The translations under genes were made by a program, and so were the position numbers. 32,000 bases of DNA, taken from Candidatus Thorarchaeota archaeon (GTDB lineage Archaea > Asgardarchaeota > Heimdallarchaeia > Hodarchaeales > Hodarchaeaceae). The notes beneath the pieces are model-generated. The model was not told the origin of the DNA. It saw nothing but the letters and a program-made list of their open reading frames with translations, and searched no databases. The DNA is taken from assembly GCA_048882505.1 (NCBI GenBank), contig JBHLRO010000007.1, positions 90,001 through 122,000 on the forward strand, given 5' to 3'. Numbering within the stretch: the first letter of the stretch is position 1; every line of letters starts with the position of its first letter. Of this stretch, positions 6,812 through 27,851 are shown one piece after another.

Positions 6812-8230
6812 CTATATATGGATTGCTCTACCCAGTGCATCTAGTGTGGCCTCCTTAATCGTCTCATTAAGGACTGGGTGCCCATGTTCTACCTTAATTA
6901 GATGTTCTGCTTCCATATGATTTGCCACTGCTAGCGCAGCCTCAGCAATCAACTCTGTAGCTTGCGGGCCGATGATATGCACACCAATAATAACCTTTGA
7001 CTCCTTATCCAAAAGTACTTTAACAAAGCCTCGATTTTCACCAGTAATAATTGCCCTACCAGATCCTACAAAGGGAACCTTACCTATTAAAATGGATTTG
7101 TACCTTTTTAATGCCTCTTCTTCCGTAACACCCACCGAAGAAACCTCAGGATCGGTAAAGATTACGCTCGGGATTGCGTTATAGTCCATCTCGGAATTGT
7201 GACCGAGGATGTTTTCTGCCGCCACTTCGCCTTCATGATACGCAGTATAGGCCAGCATGGGAGAAGGAACGCCCTGGACAACGTCCCCTATCGCATAGAT
7301 TCCAGATACATTTGTTTCCATTCTGTTGTTGACGATAACGCCCCGATCATAAGCCACGCCCGTTGAGTCGAGACCCAGCCCTTCAATAACGGGCGCTCGG
7401 CCGATCGATACCAGGACATAATCCGCCTCTTGGTGGTGCTCGGTTCCACTACTATCTATAAAACTTACCCGTTTATTCCCCGATGGCGTATCGGAGATTC
7501 GAGTGACGCGTGATCCCGTATGACACTTAATGCCTACCCTTGTAAAGGCATCTTCGAGTTCTCTACTCAAATCGTGATCCTCCATGGGGATTAAACGCGA
7601 CAACATCTCGATAATTGTGACATCTGTTTCTTCAAAACAACGAAAAATGCACGCAAATTCCCCACCAATGACTCCTCCCCCAATTACTATCAAACTCTTC
7701 GGAATAGCATTTAGTTCCAAAACGCTTTCGCTCGTAAGAACTTTGGCTCCTTCAATTCCAGGTATCGGAACAAACGCTGGTTTACTACCAGATGCTATGA
7801 TGATCCCTTTTTTTGCGATAACACGATAAGCTTCCTCAATCCCATACCCTTTAACTTCAACGGTTCTGGCATCAATGAAACTTCCCTGCCCCTTTATGAC
7901 TGTAATACTGTTCTTTTCCATCAAGAACTGAATCCCTTTAACCATCCGTCGAACAATCAATCGCTTACGTTTCTGGATTTTCTGGAAATCGACACCTAAA
8001 TAGTCCGCCTTTAAACCAAATCTTGAGATCTGCCTCAGGGCCTTACATTTTTTTGCTGACTCTACCAAAACTTTGGTAGGAATACAACCTCTATTCACGC
8101 AGGTTCCCCCAAGATCTGCCTTTTCCACAAGAACCACCTGAGCATTTAACTGGGCCGCTCTAATTGCAGCCACATATCCACCTGGACCGCCCCCTATGAT
8201 AATGATGTCCGTTTCAATTTCGTCAGCCAT
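6812..8230 (-). CDS. lpdA: Dihydrolipoamide dehydrogenase (E3 / GCS L protein)
   Basis: GGGPGGY FAD motif, GGTCVNRGCIPTK redox disulfide, GGGVIG NAD motif and C-terminal HPVLNE His-Glu pair. No N-terminal HMA domain or C-terminal CC, so not MerA. Confidence 0.95.
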   Translation of the reverse strand: MADEIETDIIIIGGGPGGYVAAIRAAQLNAQVVLVEKADLGGTCVNRGCIPTKVLVESAKKCKALRQISRFGLKADYLGVDFQKIQKRKRLIVRRMVKGIQFLMEKNSITVIKGQGSFIDARTVEVKGYGIEEAYRVIAKKGIIIASGSKPAFVPIPGIEGAKVLTSESVLELNAIPKSLIVIGGGVIGGEFACIFRCFEETDVTIIEMLSRLIPMEDHDLSRELEDAFTRVGIKCHTGSRVTRISDTPSGNKRVSFIDSSGTEHHQEADYVLVSIGRAPVIEGLGLDSTGVAYDRGVIVNNRMETNVSGIYAIGDVVQGVPSPMLAYTAYHEGEVAAENILGHNSEMDYNAIPSVIFTDPEVSSVGVTEEEALKRYKSILIGKVPFVGSGRAIITGENRGFVKVLLDKESKVIIGVHIIGPQATELIAEAALAVANHMEAEHLIKVEHGHPVLNETIKEATLDALGRAIHI

Positions 8231-18162: not shown

Positions 18163-20430
18163 TTGGGATTCGGAATGAACTGGAATATTCTGCTTGCCTA
18201 TTTCAATTCATTTATGGCGGCAATCGGTACAGGAATTACTTTTACTGCCTTCTCCGTATTTATCACGCAAACTTTGGGTTTACCAAATCTTGTCCTTGGG
18301 AATCTGTTTACAATTGCAGGATTAGCCTCAACGATCTTCGTATTTCCTTCTGGCTACCTAGCCGATAAGTACCGGAGAGACATTCTCATTCGGTTATCGG
18401 TACTTTTTCTATTTATGGGCCAGATATTGCTTATTACATCAACAACTCTAATCGGTTCTCCAGAAACCGCGTTAATTGCTTTGATAGCGAGTCGTTTTCT
18501 TGATGGTATGGGGTGGGGATTATCTGGACCAGCTGCCCAAGCTCTTATAGCTGACAGTCTTGAAGCCGGTAATAGATCACATGTATACGCACGGATGCAT
18601 TTTGTGAACCTTGGGGCATCTGCCATTGGCCCTTTTCTAGCTATTGGACTAACATTAATCTTTGGTGATACCTGGGCCATCGGAACTCTTCAGAATTTGA
18701 TCATAATAGGTGCTATTGCATCTATATTTGGAATTCTCTCGTTGGGACTCATGAGCGATGATCAGGCGGTAACTTCAAGACTGGAAATCCCCTCCCAAGA
18801 CAAGCAGATAGAGAAAGAACCAGTAATTGCCACGGTGTTCGGTCGAGAATTCTCATACGATGTTGTCATTCCGAGTGTTATCGTAATTTCGGGGATAATT
18901 ATAGGATTTGGTGCTGGTGCAACCGTGGCGTTCTTTCCCGTGCTTTTCGCAGATCCTCACATTGGTTATGGATTAAAACCTTTGTTTACTTACACAATTA
19001 TGGGCATAACCAGCCTTGTAACCGGATTTGCTGGAATTATGGCCCAGAAATTGATACAGAAGACAGGTAGGATCGGCAGTATGTTTTTGGTTCAAGGCCT
19101 AGCTATATTGTGTCTCCTTGGGTTAGTCATTAATCTCGTTTTGTATCAAGGAGGTACTATTCTCTTTGAAACATCAGTGCTTATACTTGTCTTCTTTTAT
19201 ATATCACGTAATTCGTTGATGAATGCTAGTGGCCCAATTTCTCGATCAATCGTTATGGACGTAGTTCCCTCCAAGGACAGGGGAAAGTGGAATTCGTTAG
19301 AAACATTGGCTTGGGGCATGTTCTGGTCTGTTTCAGCCTCTATTGGTGGATTTGTTGTCGATACGTTGGGTTTTTTGTACGTATTCGTATTTACCGCGAC
19401 ATTATACTCCATAGCAACCCTAGTATTGCTCACAATTAGAAAGCGTGTTCCTAAGGAGTCTGTTTTATCCCGTACATATCAGATTGGAAGACTTTCAACC
19501 CGTAATCGTGTTGTTATGTCATCTAATACTTTGAATGGCAGTCTAAAACCTGCAGATCATGCGGGTCAATTAAAACAGGAGACTATCTCTTTTTATGCCA
19601 ATGTTTCTCAAGGAGGAGTCGGATTAATCTGTTTACAGCCTGCTTATATCTCTAATTCTGGTAAACAGACTGTGAATCAGTTGGGAATCCACGAAGATTA
19701 TTGTATTCCACGTTTACAGGAATTAGTGGAGCATGTGCACCAGGATGGCGCTTTAATAGGAATTCGTATCACGCATGCCGGAGCAGCAACGCGAAGGTCA
19801 ATAACTGGGTCGGAACCGTTATCAGCTTCCAGCATTCAAATACCTGGTTATGATCCTCCTCGCGCGCTTGAATCTGGGGAATTACTGGAAATCAGACAGG
19901 AATTTGTGAATGCCGCCCATAGGGCCGTCGTTGCCGGTTTTGATGTAATCGAACTGTCATCATTTTTCGACCCAAATCAAGTACCAGATTTGTTTACTCA
20001 GTTTCTTTCTCCTAAATTTAATAAACGAACAGATAAGTACGGTGGATCATTTGGAAACAGAATGCAGTTTCCTTTGGAAGTAATAAAAGATATAAAGTCA
20101 TCCCTTCCCCCATCCGTGATGTTAGCGTTTTATGTTTGTGTTCCTACGCACGAATTGGTATTGGATGAACTTATTGAATTCGTTGGCTCTCTTTGCTACT
20201 CGGGAATTGAGATCCTGGGCTTAGATTTTGTAGATCGGTTGATAGAACAAGAAGAATCTATCGAATTAATAAAGAGAATACGAAAAGAATTTCCTGCTTT
20301 AGCCCTAATTTTTAGCGGGGATTTTGATGTGAGAAGCGGAGAAAACGCCATTAAAAAAGGTCAGGCCGATCTAATTGGCTTTGAAACTTTGCTTCAACGA
20401 GACGCTTCATTTCCCAATGCTTTACGATAA
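18163..20430 (+). CDS. MFS transporter fused to a degenerate NADH:flavin oxidoreductase (Old Yellow Enzyme) TIM-barrel domain
   Basis: About 430 aa of hydrophobic helices with MFS motif A (SGYLADKYRRD, QKTGRIG), then OYE landmarks IGRLSTRNRVVM, GGVGLI, THAG, AGFDVIE, QFLSPKFNKRTDKYGGSFGNRMQF and ADLIGF in one continuous ORF. Alternative ATG at 18175. Confidence 0.9.
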   Translation: MGFGMNWNILLAYFNSFMAAIGTGITFTAFSVFITQTLGLPNLVLGNLFTIAGLASTIFVFPSGYLADKYRRDILIRLSVLFLFMGQILLITSTTLIGSPETALIALIASRFLDGMGWGLSGPAAQALIADSLEAGNRSHVYARMHFVNLGASAIGPFLAIGLTLIFGDTWAIGTLQNLIIIGAIASIFGILSLGLMSDDQAVTSRLEIPSQDKQIEKEPVIATVFGREFSYDVVIPSVIVISGIIIGFGAGATVAFFPVLFADPHIGYGLKPLFTYTIMGITSLVTGFAGIMAQKLIQKTGRIGSMFLVQGLAILCLLGLVINLVLYQGGTILFETSVLILVFFYISRNSLMNASGPISRSIVMDVVPSKDRGKWNSLETLAWGMFWSVSASIGGFVVDTLGFLYVFVFTATLYSIATLVLLTIRKRVPKESVLSRTYQIGRLSTRNRVVMSSNTLNGSLKPADHAGQLKQETISFYANVSQGGVGLICLQPAYISNSGKQTVNQLGIHEDYCIPRLQELVEHVHQDGALIGIRITHAGAATRRSITGSEPLSASSIQIPGYDPPRALESGELLEIRQEFVNAAHRAVVAGFDVIELSSFFDPNQVPDLFTQFLSPKFNKRTDKYGGSFGNRMQFPLEVIKDIKSSLPPSVMLAFYVCVPTHELVLDELIEFVGSLCYSGIEILGLDFVDRLIEQEESIELIKRIRKEFPALALIFSGDFDVRSGENAIKKGQADLIGFETLLQRDASFPNALR

Positions 20431-20449: not shown

Positions 20450-20839
20450 TCAACTGGTACAATACGTTTCATATTCGTCAGCATTCATCAATTTCGCAAG
20501 ATCCTCTTCCAAGTTTGATGGCCGAACGCGGACAAGCCATGCACCATAAGGATCTGAATTAGTCAATTCCGGAGAGTCCTCAACCTCGTCATTAACCTCC
20601 ATGACTTCTCCTGATATTGGCGAATGGACATCAGATACAGCTTTTACTGATTCAATTGCTGCAAACACTTCTCCCTGGGTTATTGTATCCCCGACTTCAG
20701 GAAGTTCAACCATGACGACATCCTTTAAAGCTTGTTGGGCAAAATCCGAAATCCCAATCAAACATGTTCCATCATCTTCAACTCTGCACCATTGGTGCTC
20801 CTTATAGTATTTTGCAGACTTATCGTATTCATAAGACAT
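20450..20839 (-). CDS. gcvH: Glycine cleavage system H protein (lipoyl carrier)
   Basis: EHQW, GISDFAQ, ESVKAVSD lipoyl lysine, SPISGEV, NSDPYG-W; GGAG RBS. Confidence 0.95.
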   Translation of the reverse strand: MSYEYDKSAKYYKEHQWCRVEDDGTCLIGISDFAQQALKDVVMVELPEVGDTITQGEVFAAIESVKAVSDVHSPISGEVMEVNDEVEDSPELTNSDPYGAWLVRVRPSNLEEDLAKLMNADEYETYCTS

Positions 20840-21589
20840 TACAACATTCTCCTTGGAAAACCTTCCTGGTCATCTAATGATAGGACGCTAGAAAGTTGTA
20901 AATCGGATAAAATCCTTTTTTTTTAAGTCTATTGGCGCGAGACCTATATCAGTGGTAATCCATTTCATTATAGTGATAAAATAGTCGAATAGAGAAAACT
21001 TAGTTTAATTCTGTCCGATATCGGAATTAAAAATCCAGAGGTTTAATCTTAATGGCTGGCAGCATGCCATCCATCTTTTCTGAATTCTAGGATTGGATCG
21101 AATAATGTCTTTTCTTTCTCAATAAGAATAGCCACGGAATTACCAGAAAAGCTAATCCTTCACAGAACTAGCGGGACGAGGTATGTCAAAACATATCAAA
21201 AAATCGAAAGTTTAAACTTACAAAATTCACCAATAGGAATTCAATGACTTTGGGGCCATTTTCCGCCTTACGAACACAAAATTGGAGTGGTGTCGATTCC
21301 AAATTATCATATGAGTTTTCCAATTTAAATAATTTAATTCATAATTATCGTTATTTATCGCAAATAAAAAATGAATCGTTCGTTGATCGCTTATTCACTC
21401 CAATGTGTTCACGAAATAGTTGTCAGGGGCGGATGGACCAATTAACAATAATAAATTCCGGAAAAAAACGAAAAAAGAGAAAAAGGTCAAGTGCCATACG
21501 AGTACACGGAATTTCCTATATCTTATACCAGAGGAAATCCCTATAAATAGCTCAGAAGTGCTCGACAGTCTCTTAAATTGGGATTATTT

Positions 21590-22231
21590 ATGAGTACACA
21601 AGTATATGAGTTGAATGATGAAAGTCAAGCTTTTCGTAACGAAGTTGTTGAAGAAGAGGGGGGCCACCACCTTAAGAGCTGCTTTCAGTGCTCATCCTGC
21701 TCTTTAGCGTGTCCTGTGGCCGAAGTTGGTGTTGATCTGCATCCTCGTCGTGTTATTCGCCAGATTCTTTTTGGCTTAAGGAAAGAGGTTTTACAAAGCC
21801 CGGAAATTTGGAAATGTGTCGGATGTTTTGAATGTACAGACATGTGTCCCCAGAACGTGCGTTTCACAGAGGTGATAGAGGCCCTCCGACGGATAGCCAT
21901 TCGTGATTCTAAGCATGATAATAAGAATCACCGAATAACATTACCCAAGGAAGCGGTTTTAAAACACTCTTTTGATAAAAGGTTCAAGGAAAGCGTATGG
22001 TTATGGGGACGGACTTGGGAACCTGGAATGATCGGTCGGTACTTCTTATATGGACGGGGTTTCCCCTTTGGGGCCTTGATTGGATTTAAGTATCTATCAA
22101 TGATTCTAAACTTACTTGCCAAATTTAAAATTGAATTCCTCCCGCCCCGAACTGGAGAGACACGCAAAGAAGTTCGACGTATTTTCGCAAGAGCCAAAGA
22201 AATACAGAACGGTAAGGGGTCTTCATCATGA
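21590..22231 (+). CDS. hdrC: Heterodisulfide reductase subunit C-like 2x[4Fe-4S] protein
   Basis: CFQCSSCSLACP and CVGCFECTDMCPQ. ATG 21590 (track start TTG 21578); TATA-like CTATAAAT at about 21541. Confidence 0.9.
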   Translation: MSTQVYELNDESQAFRNEVVEEEGGHHLKSCFQCSSCSLACPVAEVGVDLHPRRVIRQILFGLRKEVLQSPEIWKCVGCFECTDMCPQNVRFTEVIEALRRIAIRDSKHDNKNHRITLPKEAVLKHSFDKRFKESVWLWGRTWEPGMIGRYFLYGRGFPFGALIGFKYLSMILNLLAKFKIEFLPPRTGETRKEVRRIFARAKEIQNGKGSSS

Positions 22232-23127
22232 AGATAGCGTACTATCCTGGTTGTTCATTGCATAAGATGGCAAAGGAATATAATAAATCTACATACAAAG
22301 TTTCTAAAGCTCTTGATCTCGAGCTGGAAGAACTAGAGGGGTGGAATTGCTGCGGAGCAATGGAAGTTAGCGCTATTGATCCCCTGGCTGCTGATGGCAT
22401 TGTAGCGCGTAATTTGGCCTTGGCCGAAACTCAGGGCTATAACGATCTCATGGCGGTCTGTCCAGCCTGCTCTCATAAATTAATCTCAGTCAATCGAAAA
22501 ATGGAACTTAATGATGCGAAGGCAGAGGAGATTAATTCGCTTCTGGACCGTTCGTATACTCCTGGTGCAGTGAATCCAATCCATTTTCTGCAGGTTCTCA
22601 AAGACAAAATCGGTTTAGATAAAATAAGGCAGAAAGTTCTTCCAGGAAATCCGCTTGAGGGAAAAAAAGGAGTATCTTACTATGGATGCCTCTGTACTAG
22701 ACCAGGGGACGTCATTCAGTTTGAGGATCCAAACAACCCAACGTTTATGGATGATATTCTTCGCGTAATCGGAGTTGAAGTTCCACATTTTCCCATGAAA
22801 ACCAAGTGTTGTGGAGCCACGCAACTCATGGTGAACAAACCCTTGGTTGAAAGTCTTACAGGGAATATCTTATTAAATGCCCATGATGTAGGTGCTGAAT
22901 TTGTTGTCGTCGCCTGCCAGATGTGTGCACAGGCCTTGGATGGCCAACAGAAGCAATCTCTCAAGCGTGTAGAAGCCAAGAATGTTAAGCTTCCTGTGCT
23001 ATACATATCTCAAGCCTTGGGTATTGCGATGGGTATGAGCTACGGTATGTTGGGTTTGGGTTCCAATTTCGTTTCGCCCAAAAGGCTTCTTGCGCGTAAA
23101 TCAAACGGAGGCACAGGAACAAAATGA
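22228..23127 (+). CDS. hdrB: Heterodisulfide reductase subunit B
   Basis: YYPGCSL, WNCCGA, CPAC, YYGC, KCCGA, ACQMC (two CCG domains); ATGA overlap with hdrC. Confidence 0.93.
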   Translation: MKIAYYPGCSLHKMAKEYNKSTYKVSKALDLELEELEGWNCCGAMEVSAIDPLAADGIVARNLALAETQGYNDLMAVCPACSHKLISVNRKMELNDAKAEEINSLLDRSYTPGAVNPIHFLQVLKDKIGLDKIRQKVLPGNPLEGKKGVSYYGCLCTRPGDVIQFEDPNNPTFMDDILRVIGVEVPHFPMKTKCCGATQLMVNKPLVESLTGNILLNAHDVGAEFVVVACQMCAQALDGQQKQSLKRVEAKNVKLPVLYISQALGIAMGMSYGMLGLGSNFVSPKRLLARKSNGGTGTK

Positions 23128-24260
23128 CATTATCAGGCCAATCTCCCTCTGGGTTTCTTCCATTGGATACATCCGATCCGATGTCTGTTATTTATGCATG
23201 TTATCAATGTGGGTCGTGTACAGGGGTATGTCCTCTACGTAAAGTCTCACAATACAATCCACGTGCCATCATTCATGCTTCTCTTCTGGGCCACTCTTTG
23301 TCAGAGGATGATCTAACCGATTGCCTGACTTGCCGTCAATGCTACGAAGTTTGCCCTCAACAAATTGATTTTCCTCTCTTTATCCAAAGTCAACGGGCCC
23401 AGCTTGGGGTTAACGAACAGAACTTCGCCCATCATAACATCTTCAATCTTCTCCAAGATATGCAAAGTAAAAATAGTGAGAAAGGGATGGAATTCGAGTA
23501 TGAAGGAGATCTCAATCCTGAAGGGAATATTGCCTATTTTCCTGGTTGTATTGATTTGTTTGATCGTTTACTAGACCTTGAGCAAGTGGACTTCCATCAG
23601 ATAGGTCAAAGCGCAATCAACCTTATCAATAAGGCTGGAATAGAGCCAAACCTTGTTTCTCTGAAATGTTGCGGCCATGATGCCTTTTGGAGCGGAGACA
23701 ATGAATCTTTTAAGAAAATACGTTCCTATAATGAGAAGATCCTAAAAAAATCAGGAATAGCCATCCTCATTTTGTCATGTGCCGAATGCTACTATTCATT
23801 CAAAGAACTATATCAGCTTGACAACATCACAATCCAGCATATTTCAGAATTTATTGTAAAAAATTCTGATAACTTCTCAAAAGGAGATATGGAGCCCGCA
23901 ACCGTAACCTATCACGATCCATGTAGATTGGGACGCTATTTGGGTGAATATGACAATCCTCGTGAGGCTATCAAGGGTATCGATGGCATTACGTTTACCG
24001 AACTCCCAAAAAATCGTGGTTCTACTCAATGTTGTGGAGTTTCGGCATGGATGAAGTGTGATGACAAATCGAGATATCTTATGCTTCAAAAACTAGAAGA
24101 AGCAACAAAGACAGGTGCGTCTACGCTAACAGTATCCTGTACTAAGTGCTTTGCTCATTTAAACTGTGTTCTGCACGATAAAAAACCACAACACAATTTT
24201 GATATTCAGATCAAGGAGCTGGGAACCCTTGTGGACGAAGCAATCCCGCGGGTGAAATAA
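23124..24260 (+). CDS. HdrD-like fused HdrC-HdrB (Fe-S)-binding protein
   Basis: CYQCGSCTGVCP, CLTCRQCYEVCP, then YFPGC, KCCGH, SCAEC, YHDPCRLGR, QCCGV, SCTKC; ATGA overlap with hdrB. Confidence 0.88.
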   Translation: MTLSGQSPSGFLPLDTSDPMSVIYACYQCGSCTGVCPLRKVSQYNPRAIIHASLLGHSLSEDDLTDCLTCRQCYEVCPQQIDFPLFIQSQRAQLGVNEQNFAHHNIFNLLQDMQSKNSEKGMEFEYEGDLNPEGNIAYFPGCIDLFDRLLDLEQVDFHQIGQSAINLINKAGIEPNLVSLKCCGHDAFWSGDNESFKKIRSYNEKILKKSGIAILILSCAECYYSFKELYQLDNITIQHISEFIVKNSDNFSKGDMEPATVTYHDPCRLGRYLGEYDNPREAIKGIDGITFTELPKNRGSTQCCGVSAWMKCDDKSRYLMLQKLEEATKTGASTLTVSCTKCFAHLNCVLHDKKPQHNFDIQIKELGTLVDEAIPRVK

Positions 24261-24262
24261 TC

Positions 24263-27200
24263 ATGGTTACCATTACGCAGGAAATTCCTCAATCTTCAAC
24301 GAAACTGGGATCTGTTTTAGTCATTGGTGGAGGAATCGCAGGTATCCAAGCATCACTGGATCTAGCTGAGCAGGGATTCCTGGTTTATTTAATGGAAAGT
24401 AACCCCTCCATAGGGGGTCGGATGGTTCAGTTAGATAAGACTTTTCCTACTCTTGATTGCGCTATGTGTATTCTGGGCCCCAAATTAGTTGATGTAGAAC
24501 GCCATCCGAATATTAAACTCTTGACTTATTGTGATCCCATTAGCTTAGCAGGAGAACCTGGAAATTTCGAAGTGCGCTATTTAAAGAAAGCACGGTATGT
24601 TGATGAGGAAAAGTGTACCGGCTGTGGAGTATGTCAAGATAAATGTCCTGAATGGATTTATGATGATTTCAATGCTGGCTTGACTAGAAAAGATAAACGC
24701 GGCCGAATTCGTCAAGGCCGTAAAAATATCTCAATCCCATTTCCTCAGGCCGTTCCGAAAATTGCTTACCTTCAACGTGATACTTGTCGGTGGTTTACTA
24801 AGGGAAAATGTCAAATCTGCCTAAAATTATGTGGCCCCGGAGCAGTGGACTACGAACAGAAAGACGAGGAAAAGACCATCAATATCGGTGCAGTAATCGT
24901 TACAACGGGATTTGATCCATTTGATGTTAGAACACTCCCGAGTCTTCACTTTGAGGACTTTGCCAATGTTGTAACAACACTCCAATTTGAACGTTTGCTC
25001 AGCGCAAGCGGCATCACAGAGGGAGAAGTTATTCGGCCTTCAGACGATGAACATCCAAAGAAAATCGCTTTTCTACAATGCGTGGGGTCACGGAATACAA
25101 CCCTAAACAGAGATTATTGCTCTGCTGCCTGTTGTATGTTTTCGGTAAAAGAAGCGATAATGGCAAAGGAACATGACCCTGATGTCGATGCTTATGTTTA
25201 TTATATCGATATCAGAGCCTTTGGGAAGGGATTTGAAGAATTTTATAAAAGGGCAAAAGATGAATTCGGAATTAAGTTTATTAAGTCACGTATCAGAGAA
25301 CTTAGAGAAATCTCAGGAAATAAGAACCTTATCATAAAGTATGAAGATTTTTCAGGACCTAATCCTGTCATAAAAGCAGATGAAATGGATATGGTTGTTC
25401 TTTCAACTGGATTAGATCCATCGTCCCGAAGGAAATTTTTAAACTCATGTCTAAGTCTTGAGCTTGATCGTTACGGATTTGTCCAAACAAATCCGTTGAC
25501 ACCTCTAGAAACAAATCGAGCAGGGATTTATGTTTGTGGGGTAGCCTCAGGGCCCAAAGATATCCCTGATACCGTTGCCCAAGCGAGTGGTGCGGCAGCA
25601 AAAGCAGCTATCTTCTTAAAAGAGGTGAGAGGAACTGAAATTGAGGAGGTCAAACTTCCGCCGCCAATCCCAGTTAGTTCGATGGATGAACCTCGTATCG
25701 GGGTTCTCATTTGCCATTGTGGACATAATATAGCTTCTGTTGTTGATGTCGAAGCGGTCGCGGAATACGCCAGATCATTCCCAAATGTGGTATTCGCAAC
25801 AGATCCCATGTATGCATGTGCAGCCGATACTCAGGTCTTAATTCGAGAAGCCATCCAAGAACATCAACTAAATCGTGTTATCGTGGCCTCGTGTACCCCA
25901 AGAACTCATGAGCCCCTTTTTAGGAGCACTCTTAAGGAAGTTGGACTAAATGAATTCTTGTTTGACCTGGTGAATATTCGAGAACAGGTGTCGTGGGTCC
26001 ATCCTGACGCGGGAGAGATGGCGACCGAAAAGGCGAAAGACCTTGTGCGTGGGGCTATTACACGGGCCAATCGTTTGGAACCCCTATTTAAGGAGAAAAT
26101 AACGATTATCCAGAAATCCCTGGTGATCGGGGGTGGTGTCGCAGGTATGACGTGTGCCCTTGATCTGGCACGAGCAGGATATCCCGTATATTTGATGGAA
26201 AAAGAAGATCAACTGGGAGGGGAGCTCCTTAGAGTCCCTGATCTTCATAATGGATTAAAAGGACCAGAAATTGTCGCTAACCTCGAAACCCAAGTTCGGA
26301 ATGAACCTAATATCACTGTATTTACAAATGCAAGGCTAGAGGATGTACGTGGAACTGTGGGTAACTTCAAAGCTTTAGTTCAAGGTACAGAAATTGATTT
26401 TGGTGCTGTCGTTCTCGCCACAGGAGCAAAGCCTTTTGAACCACACGGCTATTACCACTACGGTATAAATCCCAACGTTATCACCCAACGAGAACTGGAA
26501 ACGCATTTTGATGAATTTTCCCCCAATACGGTTGTAATAATCCAATGCGTCGGAGCCAGAGAACCAGATCCCCCCAGAACTTACTGCAGCCGTATTTGCT
26601 GTACTACTGCAATTAAAAACAGCATTCGAATTAAGGAACGCAACCCCAACACCAATGTGATAATTCTCTACAAAGATATCCGCACATACGGCACCCTAGA
26701 AGAACTATATCGGAAATCACGACAATTAGGGACGATATTCATTCGTTACACTGATGAAGATACCCTGCAGGTAAGTGAGAAGGGAGAAATTGAAATTTAC
26801 GATAATATGCTAGGAGCCAAGATACGAATCAACCCGGACCTAATTGTTCTGAGTACTCCGCTAATTCCAAATCCTAATGAAGACCTTGCCCAGACATTCA
26901 AAGTACCTCGAGGTAATGATGGATTTTTCTTGGAAGCGCATGTAAAACTTCGTCCTATCGACTTTGCCACCGAAGGTGTATTCTTAGCGGGCACTGGACA
27001 TTATCCGAAATTTTCTTCGGAGGCAATTTTCCAAGGCAGTGGAGCTGCTGTTCGAGTCATGGCTTTATTATCACAAGGCTACATTCTTTCTGAGGGTGCC
27101 ATCTCTGAAGTTGATCAGTCCATCTGCCGTGGCTGTGGGCGCTGTGAGCTTGTCTGTCCGTTCAATGCTATCCAAACGGAGGTCAAGTTAATAGATCTAG

Positions 27201-27388
27201 AAACTCAAACAATCCAGACGATTAAAGCAAGCATAAATCCGGCTGTATGCAAAGGATGCGGCATTTGTGTGGTCACTTGCCCTGTTAGTGCCATCACAGT
27301 GAAACATTTCCATAAAGAAACCATTGAAGCCCAGGTGAAATCCATTCTTCTGAAACCAGAGGAACTAGTTGCCGAGGAAATATCCTAG
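24263..27388 (+). CDS. hdrA: Large heterodisulfide reductase subunit A with tandem-duplicated FAD modules
   Basis: GGGIAG and GGGVAG FAD motifs, DKTFPTLDCAMC, two CVG-x-R...YCS-x-x-CC motifs, CHCG...SCTPRTHE, and inserted and C-terminal ferredoxin motifs. Confidence 0.95.
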   Translation: MVTITQEIPQSSTKLGSVLVIGGGIAGIQASLDLAEQGFLVYLMESNPSIGGRMVQLDKTFPTLDCAMCILGPKLVDVERHPNIKLLTYCDPISLAGEPGNFEVRYLKKARYVDEEKCTGCGVCQDKCPEWIYDDFNAGLTRKDKRGRIRQGRKNISIPFPQAVPKIAYLQRDTCRWFTKGKCQICLKLCGPGAVDYEQKDEEKTINIGAVIVTTGFDPFDVRTLPSLHFEDFANVVTTLQFERLLSASGITEGEVIRPSDDEHPKKIAFLQCVGSRNTTLNRDYCSAACCMFSVKEAIMAKEHDPDVDAYVYYIDIRAFGKGFEEFYKRAKDEFGIKFIKSRIRELREISGNKNLIIKYEDFSGPNPVIKADEMDMVVLSTGLDPSSRRKFLNSCLSLELDRYGFVQTNPLTPLETNRAGIYVCGVASGPKDIPDTVAQASGAAAKAAIFLKEVRGTEIEEVKLPPPIPVSSMDEPRIGVLICHCGHNIASVVDVEAVAEYARSFPNVVFATDPMYACAADTQVLIREAIQEHQLNRVIVASCTPRTHEPLFRSTLKEVGLNEFLFDLVNIREQVSWVHPDAGEMATEKAKDLVRGAITRANRLEPLFKEKITIIQKSLVIGGGVAGMTCALDLARAGYPVYLMEKEDQLGGELLRVPDLHNGLKGPEIVANLETQVRNEPNITVFTNARLEDVRGTVGNFKALVQGTEIDFGAVVLATGAKPFEPHGYYHYGINPNVITQRELETHFDEFSPNTVVIIQCVGAREPDPPRTYCSRICCTTAIKNSIRIKERNPNTNVIILYKDIRTYGTLEELYRKSRQLGTIFIRYTDEDTLQVSEKGEIEIYDNMLGAKIRINPDLIVLSTPLIPNPNEDLAQTFKVPRGNDGFFLEAHVKLRPIDFATEGVFLAGTGHYPKFSSEAIFQGSGAAVRVMALLSQGYILSEGAISEVDQSICRGCGRCELVCPFNAIQTEVKLIDLETQTIQTIKASINPAVCKGCGICVVTCPVSAITVKHFHKETIEAQVKSILLKPEELVAEEIS

Positions 27389-27416
27389 ATAATTAGTAGA
27401 AAATGGTAGAATCCCT

Positions 27417-27851
27417 ATGACTGAAGCACAAACCCTATCTATGCAAAGTAGATTTGAACCCAAGATCATTGTGTTCGCCTGCAACTGGTGTTCATATGCA
27501 GGCGCCGACATGGCAGGTGTCTCCCGTTTTACATATCCAGTAAATGTCCGTATCGTTCGAGTTATGTGTACAGGACGGATCGACCCGTCGTTTATTATTA
27601 AAGCATATCTGGACGGCGCAGATGGGGTACTTGTTGCAGGTTGTCATCCAGGGGATTGCCATTATCTTGAAGGAAATCTACGAGCTAAGAAACGTATAGA
27701 CAATACGTTAGAAGTGTTGAAAATTCTTGGATGGGAAGTAGATCGATTAAGATTGGAATGGATATCAGCTAGTGAGGGCAAGCGTTTCTCCCAAGTGATG
27801 ACTCAATTCACTGATCAGGTTCGGGCGCTTGGAGCAATTTCCCTTGAATAA
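27417..27851 (+). CDS. mvhD: MvhD-type [2Fe-2S] hydrogenase/Hdr iron-sulfur subunit
   Basis: FACNWCSYAGAD, RVMCTGRID, GCHPGDCHY, LEWISASEG. Confidence 0.95.
   Translation: MTEAQTLSMQSRFEPKIIVFACNWCSYAGADMAGVSRFTYPVNVRIVRVMCTGRIDPSFIIKAYLDGADGVLVAGCHPGDCHYLEGNLRAKKRIDNTLEVLKILGWEVDRLRLEWISASEGKRFSQVMTQFTDQVRALGAISLE

Follow-up and report, generated by a model that had tools for sequence, protein, structure and literature searches.

In a 32,000-nucleotide stretch of the Hodarchaeales assembly GCA_048882505.1 (contig JBHLRO010000007.1, positions 90,001 to 122,000; hereafter the window), a single gene encodes a carrier of the major facilitator superfamily (MFS) joined in frame to a barrel of the Old Yellow Enzyme (OYE) fold. 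The fusion is real, the barrel is maintained by purifying selection, and nearly all residues that make an OYE a flavoenzyme have been lost from it. We are moderately confident that the barrel is an accessory domain without catalysis, placed on the carrier's cytoplasmic side, where its task would probably be regulatory. The gene and its parts are listed below, with residues counted from the TTG codon at 18163, in which numbering the MFS domain begins at residue 5.

18175..20430, + strand: whole gene, MFS carrier and OYE-like barrel, 751 amino acids (aa) from the ATG at 18175
18175..19437, + strand: MFS domain, residues 5-425, 12 predicted transmembrane (TM) helices
18352..18381, + strand: MFS motif A between TM2 and TM3, G64-Y-L-A-D68-K-Y-R71-R72-D73
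19438..19455, + strand: linker RKRVPK, residues 426-431, directly after TM12
19456..20427, + strand: OYE-fold TIM barrel with degenerate flavin and catalytic positions, residues 432-755
19639..19641, + strand: P493, at the position of YqjM A60, end of strand 2
19765..19767, + strand: R535, at the position of the FMN-contacting Gln (YqjM Q102)
19957..19989, + strand: remodelled loop after strand 4, S599-D609, in place of H-x-x-H-G-Y and with a 5-residue insert

The original prediction, made from the sequence of the window, described one uninterrupted 755-aa open reading frame (ORF) in which the last MFS helix is followed, after a short linker, by a full OYE-like barrel, and this description holds. 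The frame at 18163-20430 (+) runs without interruption for 755 codons from the TTG, although the ATG at 18175 is the likelier start, because MNWN opens all homologues and P0002, the copy in the database, has a length of 751 aa. The linker lies exactly where it had been placed, with R426 of RKRVPK at nt 19438 and E432 of ESVLSRTYQ at nt 19456. The Pfam search that had been proposed returned both domains far over their cut-offs, MFS_1 at residues 13-347 (E 1.4e-36) and Oxidored_FMN at residues 440-646 (E 7.5e-36).

A search of 5.8 billion protein clusters yielded about 38 full-length homologues of 737-780 residues (51-59% identity), all of which carry PF07690 together with PF00724. The named ones stem without exception from Asgard metagenome-assembled genomes (MAGs) or genomes that bear the labels Hodarchaeales, Hodarchaeota or Heimdallarchaeota, and they include two closed chromosomes, CP070695.1 and CP070760.1, with the same frame. 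Within the window's own GTDB genus the open frame is present in 14 of the 22 species genomes, with no internal stop in any member, and among 400 genomes of the phylum full-length barrel matches in open frames of 718-804 residues occur in this genus only. The junction region (19400-19500), singled out in the original prediction as the place where a frameshift or stop might be hidden, is spanned without insertion or deletion by contigs of the runs X1, X2 and X4, and the relatives show neither defect there. X1 is possibly the source sample; X2 belongs to an independent study, and its contig covers 19279-19805 with zero differences. The idea that assembly or gene calling has artificially joined two separate genes is hardly credible in view of contigs from two studies that bridge the junction without an indel and of the same frame in both closed genomes and in about 38 independent assemblies. 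The genuine in-frame fusion and its recurrence in Asgard MAGs are in this way confirmed. A split MFS/OYE arrangement was sought and not found: the 401-aa ORF that follows an MFS-only gene at one locus (L003) is unrelated to OYEs and has no Pfam match. The architecture is likewise not shown by the neighbours in the ESM Atlas. The literature searched contains no description of an MFS-OYE fusion, in agreement with the earlier statement that no characterised case was known, nor of any OYE pseudoenzyme.

In the X4 contig, 226 bases at window positions 18992-19219, inside the MFS part, are swapped for a diverged stretch of equal length, probably from a co-occurring related strain or a recombinant allele.

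The barrel itself matches PF00724 with 124.5 bits (cut-off 27), yet only over profile positions 7-214 of 342, whereas a canonical Asgard OYE taken for comparison covers positions 1-341 at 272 bits. A profile built from 24 barrels of the family spans positions 15-321 of the 325 of YqjM (1z41) with an E value of 1e-42, which shows the barrel to be complete. The AlphaFold2 model of the barrel (pLDDT 81.6, predicted TM-score (pTM) 0.86) contains eight strands, and Foldseek places it at TM 0.82-0.85 to TsER, YqjM and XenA; the top 50 listed matches in the PDB are OYE-family enzymes throughout, with TM values up to 0.85. As modelled, the domain is a (beta/alpha)8 barrel of OYE topology. With the "thermophilic-like" OYEs YqjM, TsER (CrS) and TOYE (PDB 1z41, 3hf3, 8uaj, 3krz; TM 0.82-0.84) it shares the N-terminal hairpin and a series of scaffold motifs: strand 1 has NRxV, strand 3 is followed by HAG, strand 4 contains AGFDxxE, and LSPxxNxRxDxYGG is likewise kept. 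The barrel descends from a YqjM-like OYE of about 330 aa. It differs from the YqjM type in that it lacks the His/His(Asn)/Tyr set and the Gln and Arg that contact flavin mononucleotide (FMN), carries Pro at the position of A60, has an insert of 4-6 residues after strand 4 and a shorter C-terminus without the Arg-finger region, and sits behind a membrane carrier, whereas YqjM-type enzymes are soluble. By fold and ancestry it would accordingly be counted as a YqjM-like OYE, but by the chemistry that defines the family it appears to fall outside.

How far the two have separated can be seen from an exhaustive profile search of 1.84 billion cluster representatives, of whose 19,666 matches the best 150 were considered. 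One cluster of the family stands at 475 bits, and canonical OYEs reach at most 205 bits. No stand-alone copy of the degenerate barrel is found among these best 150, and fusions of MFS carriers with canonical OYEs may exist elsewhere in nature. A 245-aa fragment, P0161, takes an intermediate place (248 bits over the C-terminal half) and was left unplaced. Among the matches listed, the nearest sequences from outside the family are stand-alone archaeal-type metagenome OYEs of 330 aa at about 200 bits (P0163, P0165, P0214), and one member of the nearest canonical clusters is named Bathyarchaeota. They are similar in length and have the strand-2 pattern xAYIS/xSYIS in common with the fused barrel; unlike it, they retain the H...HG(F/Y), Q and GR motifs and have no transporter attached. 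These sequence relationships suggest a single origin for the fused barrel. In the genome from which the window is taken, which is 94.5% complete, the fused gene is the only match to PF00724.

Several other OYE homologues were encountered that do not belong to the family. P0162 (569 aa), second among the non-family matches, is a tandem pair of canonical OYE barrels. P0207, a stand-alone OYE homologue of 324 aa (L010:5001-5975), has lost the catalytic His/His/Tyr residues, and the Q102 position is taken by R; it adjoins an IscR-IscS-IscU-IscA-HscB-HscA operon on a 104-kb metagenome contig of bacterial-looking context. As a stand-alone gene beside an isc operon it was set aside as unrelated, and it looks like an independent case of OYE degeneration. 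In another Heimdall-type family there are FadH-like proteins of about 795 aa (L011:583-2979, - strand; L012:281-2662, - strand), which combine a canonical OYE barrel with an FAD/NAD(P) domain and a C-terminal SCP2 sterol-carrier domain; the long OYE frames of two genomes, G086 and G081, are of this FadH-like kind (OYE, FAD and SCP2 domains) and were rejected as candidate transporter fusions.

The degeneracy of the fused barrel was mapped through alignments to YqjM and to Thermus CrS (TsER), with family counts taken over 24 members and the 12 nearest canonical relatives read in the same columns. The correspondences are as follows.

YqjM H164: S599 here; S or A in the family, S in 21 of 24
YqjM H167: F602 here, followed by the 5-residue insert; hydrophobic or T in the family, never His or Asn; insert of 4-6 residues
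YqjM Y169: D609 here; D, N, S or G in the family
YqjM Q102: R535 here; R in 23 of 24 members, Q in 11 of 12 canonical relatives
YqjM A60: P493 here; P in 24 of 24 members, H/S/A and others in canonical relatives
YqjM R215: A655 here; A or S in the family, no Arg within ±2 positions
YqjM R308: T742 here; R in only 11 of 24
YqjM C26: T456 here; variable in the family

In YqjM, TsER and OYE1 residues at these positions hold the isoalloxazine ring, bind the carbonyl of the substrate and donate the proton. Among the FMN contacts, Q102 follows strand 3 and R215 strand 5, C26 stands for a Cys or Thr, and R308, after strand 8, is the Arg that binds the phosphate and that fewer than half of the family members retain. 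The catalytic His-His (or His-Asn) pair and the Tyr proton donor after strand 4 are absent in all 24 aligned members, while the nearest canonical relatives retain H, Y/F, Q and R at the matching columns. At the position now taken by P493, the backbone NH of A60 touches the flavin in the YqjM structure. Since nearly all FMN-holding and catalytic residues are replaced across the whole family, the barrel is probably a pseudoenzyme that has lost the side chains for FMN binding and for hydride and proton transfer. The original prediction had the domain either modify the transported substrate or gate transport as a flavin/redox sensor. Both proposals need FMN, and with nearly all of the residues that would hold it replaced, neither survives in that form; gating of transport by the barrel in some way other than flavin sensing is possible.

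The barrel is a functional part of the protein and under purifying selection. Comparison of this genome with the species closest to it (G070; 90% protein identity) gives a ratio of nonsynonymous to synonymous substitution (dN/dS) of 0.109 in the barrel and 0.099 in the MFS part; the corresponding synonymous distances (dS) are 0.59 and 0.40. One could take the barrel for a remnant without function that is in the course of being lost, given that the ancestral chemistry is gone, that several close relatives have no barrel, and that the barrel diverges faster than the carrier (43-49% against 55-66% identity to this protein). A relic would, however, hardly keep a dN/dS near that of the MFS part, stay free of stops in 14 species whose barrels are 45-52% identical (one pair at 88% excepted) and preserve 37 columns invariant in 24 members, and we regard this explanation as very improbable.

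Proteins without the barrel illuminate its status. The close MFS-only proteins (55-62% identity) end directly at the linker, as in P0045 with its terminus RNRAPSEAKDL. In the 24-member alignment P430, E432, S433 and L435 of the linker region are invariant. One MFS-only gene, at L003, occupies the orthologous position beside the same divergent cyclophilin gene; apart from the unrelated 401-aa ORF that follows it, its downstream genes match those of L001 (nitroreductase, PALP, BcrAD). At L013 and in the genome G077 the fused gene has an MFS-only paralogue as its tail-to-tail neighbour. When the MFS domains are arranged in a tree, the MFS-only rows fall inside groups of fused ones, with at least three changes of state, and the approximately unbiased (AU) test rejects a single fused clade (p 0.0015) for a group that was named after the tree had been viewed. 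Because the barrels form one tight family, the simplest history is a single gain of the barrel followed by several losses. Evidently the carrier can work without the barrel, which is an accessory and not essential.

The tail-to-tail pair, present in two species (L013:1970-5598 and L008:1-1895), consists of the fused gene and a 426-aa MFS-only paralogue of the P0053 clade; nitroreductase and PALP genes border it on one side and a cyclophilin gene on the other. It may represent a functional pair of carriers, one with and one without the barrel.

In the transporter part, MFS_1 (PF07690) scores 126.6 bits against a cut-off of 33.4, and the full-length AlphaFold2 model (pLDDT 77.8, pTM 0.62) shows twelve long helices in two halves, followed by the barrel. 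The first half comprises helices at 7-37, 42-69, 72-95, 100-132, 138-167 and 173-194, a loop extends over 195-231, and the second half has helices at 232-255, 273-301, 303-329, 335-367, 370-401 and 404-422. G64, A67, D68, R71, R72 and D73 of motif A are invariant in the 24 members. In TM5 (ASAIGPFLAIGL) G156-P157 is invariant, and the G-G pair of motif C (G-x-x-x-G-P-x-x-G-G) is absent. The twelve helices and motif A are shared with H+ antiporter/efflux-type carriers of the multidrug (DHA) kind (TIGR00900, TIGR00880 and PF05977, MFS_3/EntS-like), and the G-P of TM5 is reminiscent of their motif C. The carrier scores far under the curated cut-offs of these models: TIGR00880 and TIGR00900 give weak matches in 29 of 29 MFS domains, for example 24-31 bits against cut-offs of 131-320. 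A profile of the MFS domain matched no solved structure at E 0.001, and the distant MFS-only relatives (36-41% identity), which come from other Heimdall-type archaea and from Cloacimonadota, are all uncharacterised. The carrier is, as far as its sequence tells, a secondary-active MFS protein of an uncharacterised, mainly archaeal subfamily. Export would be a weak guess for the direction of transport. The barrel lies in the cytoplasm, because it is placed after TM12 of a twelve-helix carrier and behind a positively charged linker.

What, then, might such a domain do? In the arrangement that we favour, a dead OYE barrel would be tied to the cytoplasmic C-terminus of the carrier by the short conserved linker and would bind a small molecule or a protein, thereby modulating transport; among non-catalytic roles a regulatory one seems most likely, with oligomerisation as the alternative. 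A more specific version, in which a new pocket around R535, H538, P493 and E597 at the old flavin site binds a cytoplasmic metabolite and switches the carrier on or off, is in our judgement unlikely. The barrel can also be read as an enzyme with a rebuilt active site, using flavin in a non-canonical manner or not at all, that modifies the substrate during vectorial transport. The strong purifying selection (dN/dS 0.11) would suit such an enzyme, as would the family-specific invariant residues P493, A494, R535 (23/24), H538, E597 and P661 at the C-terminal ends of strands 2-5, and MFS-enzyme fusions do exist, LplT-Aas being an example whose model NF006386 weakly matches 5 of 29 MFS domains. However, the canonical catalytic residues have all been lost and most of the flavin contacts with them, the loops after strands 4, 6 and 8, from which the active site of an OYE is formed, belong to the least conserved parts of the barrel (column identity 0.43-0.62), and close relatives manage without the barrel. 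In published OYE structures the N-terminal hairpin shuts the barrel on the side away from the active site. It is by way of this hairpin that the short linker joins the barrel, opposite the old active site, a geometry that argues against a direct hand-over of substrate into that face and thus against channelling. We therefore hold a surviving enzymatic activity to be improbable.

Comparably small is the chance we allow for the barrel as an oligomerisation scaffold that holds two or more carriers together. YqjM-type OYEs (YqjM, TsER, TOYE) are obligate dimers or tetramers, and in YqjM a C-terminal Arg finger reaches into the partner subunit. The closest solved relatives of the barrel are precisely these enzymes, and the conserved ALR tail of the family, with L754 nearly invariant, recalls the Arg finger of YqjM without aligning to it. 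The C-terminus of the fused protein is shorter, though, ending near YqjM position 321, and the finger residue R336 has no aligned counterpart.

A non-catalytic accessory domain remains for us the better account of the barrel, and the following points weigh against it. Its regulatory role is reached indirectly, and the loss of FMN binding is deduced by aligning the barrel with OYEs of solved structure. The family retains H105 and the Gly that ends strand 7, and about half of the members also have the G-R after strand 8; the barrel may thus preserve a weak or altered site for phosphate or another ligand. Conservation on the C-terminal (catalytic) face of the barrel is 0.66 against 0.77 on the N-terminal face, a pattern that the canonical OYE control shows as well and that does not set the family apart. 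The post hoc choice of the group weakens the AU test, and no partner gene is kept in all loci. The structure prediction that had been suggested as a means of seeing contacts between barrel and transporter delivered models of both domains, but at pTM 0.62 the full-length model gives no reliable orientation of one to the other. When the MFS domain (A3) and the barrel (A2) were predicted as a complex, the score was 0.00, which carries no weight either way. Nine MFS positions are conserved in fused and changed in MFS-only proteins, five of them cytoplasmic and none extracellular; a docking surface drawn from them was rejected, as they are too few and the MFS-only rows too closely related.

Soluble modules on MFS cores have precedents. 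The yeast glucose sensors Snf3 and Rgt2 are MFS proteins with C-terminal signalling tails (PMC12740885). Together with the bacterial transporter-enzyme fusion LplT-Aas (NF006386) they illustrate the shared principle of a cytoplasmic module that adds signalling or coupled chemistry to the carrier; modules and organisms are unrelated to the present fusion, there is no homology, and none of them uses an OYE-derived barrel. Both superfamilies combined here are well known, and what would be new, as far as the literature was searched, is their combination and a pseudoenzyme derived from an OYE. The gene would exemplify how a secondary transporter acquired a flavoenzyme barrel as a non-catalytic appendage, which selection has since preserved, and the close barrel-less relatives are natural controls that make the role of the barrel testable. 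The architecture does not extend beyond a single genus-level clade of Hodarchaeales, which restricts its general significance unless the barrel proves to be a novel type of transport regulator. Were the metabolite-gated pocket to be real, the archaeal order thought to be closest to the eukaryotes would have evolved a transporter that carries its own pseudoenzyme sensor. There is also a correction to annotation: proteins of this family are labelled "MFS transporter" or "2,4-dienoyl-CoA reductase-like", and the latter label almost certainly misleads, as it implies a redox activity that the barrel, judged by its residues, would lack.

The original prediction also pointed to a neighbourhood rich in flavin and Fe-S enzymes. 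Kor, Hdr and FNR-like genes are indeed present: the neighbours in the window are a divergent CBS-domain gene, a KorAB-type 2-oxoacid:ferredoxin oxidoreductase, a convergent gcvH, an Hdr/MvhD cluster and, farther off, an FNR-like gene. These redox surroundings are no evidence of a redox role, because the Kor/CBS/GcvH/Hdr arrangement is found besides only in the closest species, G070, and they were discarded as a functional clue. Elsewhere a cyclophilin recurs, often with a nitroreductase downstream. In five other loci the fused gene (at L003 its barrel-less counterpart) adjoins a cyclophilin-type peptidyl-prolyl isomerase gene of about 156-176 aa, directly upstream and divergent; in this window the cyclophilin is absent and the CBS-domain gene stands in its place. 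Four of these cyclophilin loci have a nitroreductase downstream; in the fifth, L002, it is about 5 kb away. The cyclophilin genes are:

L001:5361-5834, cyclophilin
L002:5377-5847, cyclophilin
L003:5477-5947, cyclophilin
L009:2186-2716, cyclophilin
L013:5773-6243, cyclophilin

Further observations concern the surroundings of the gene. At window positions 20450-27851 a lone gcvH stands head to head with a cluster of HdrC, HdrB, HdrD-like, HdrA (1041 aa) and MvhD genes, and a lone dihydrolipoamide-dehydrogenase-like gene is located at 6812-8230. In another genome (G060), the fused gene is followed downstream, after about 1.6 kb, by a fragment of an IS605 OrfB-type transposase (L009:6769-7500).

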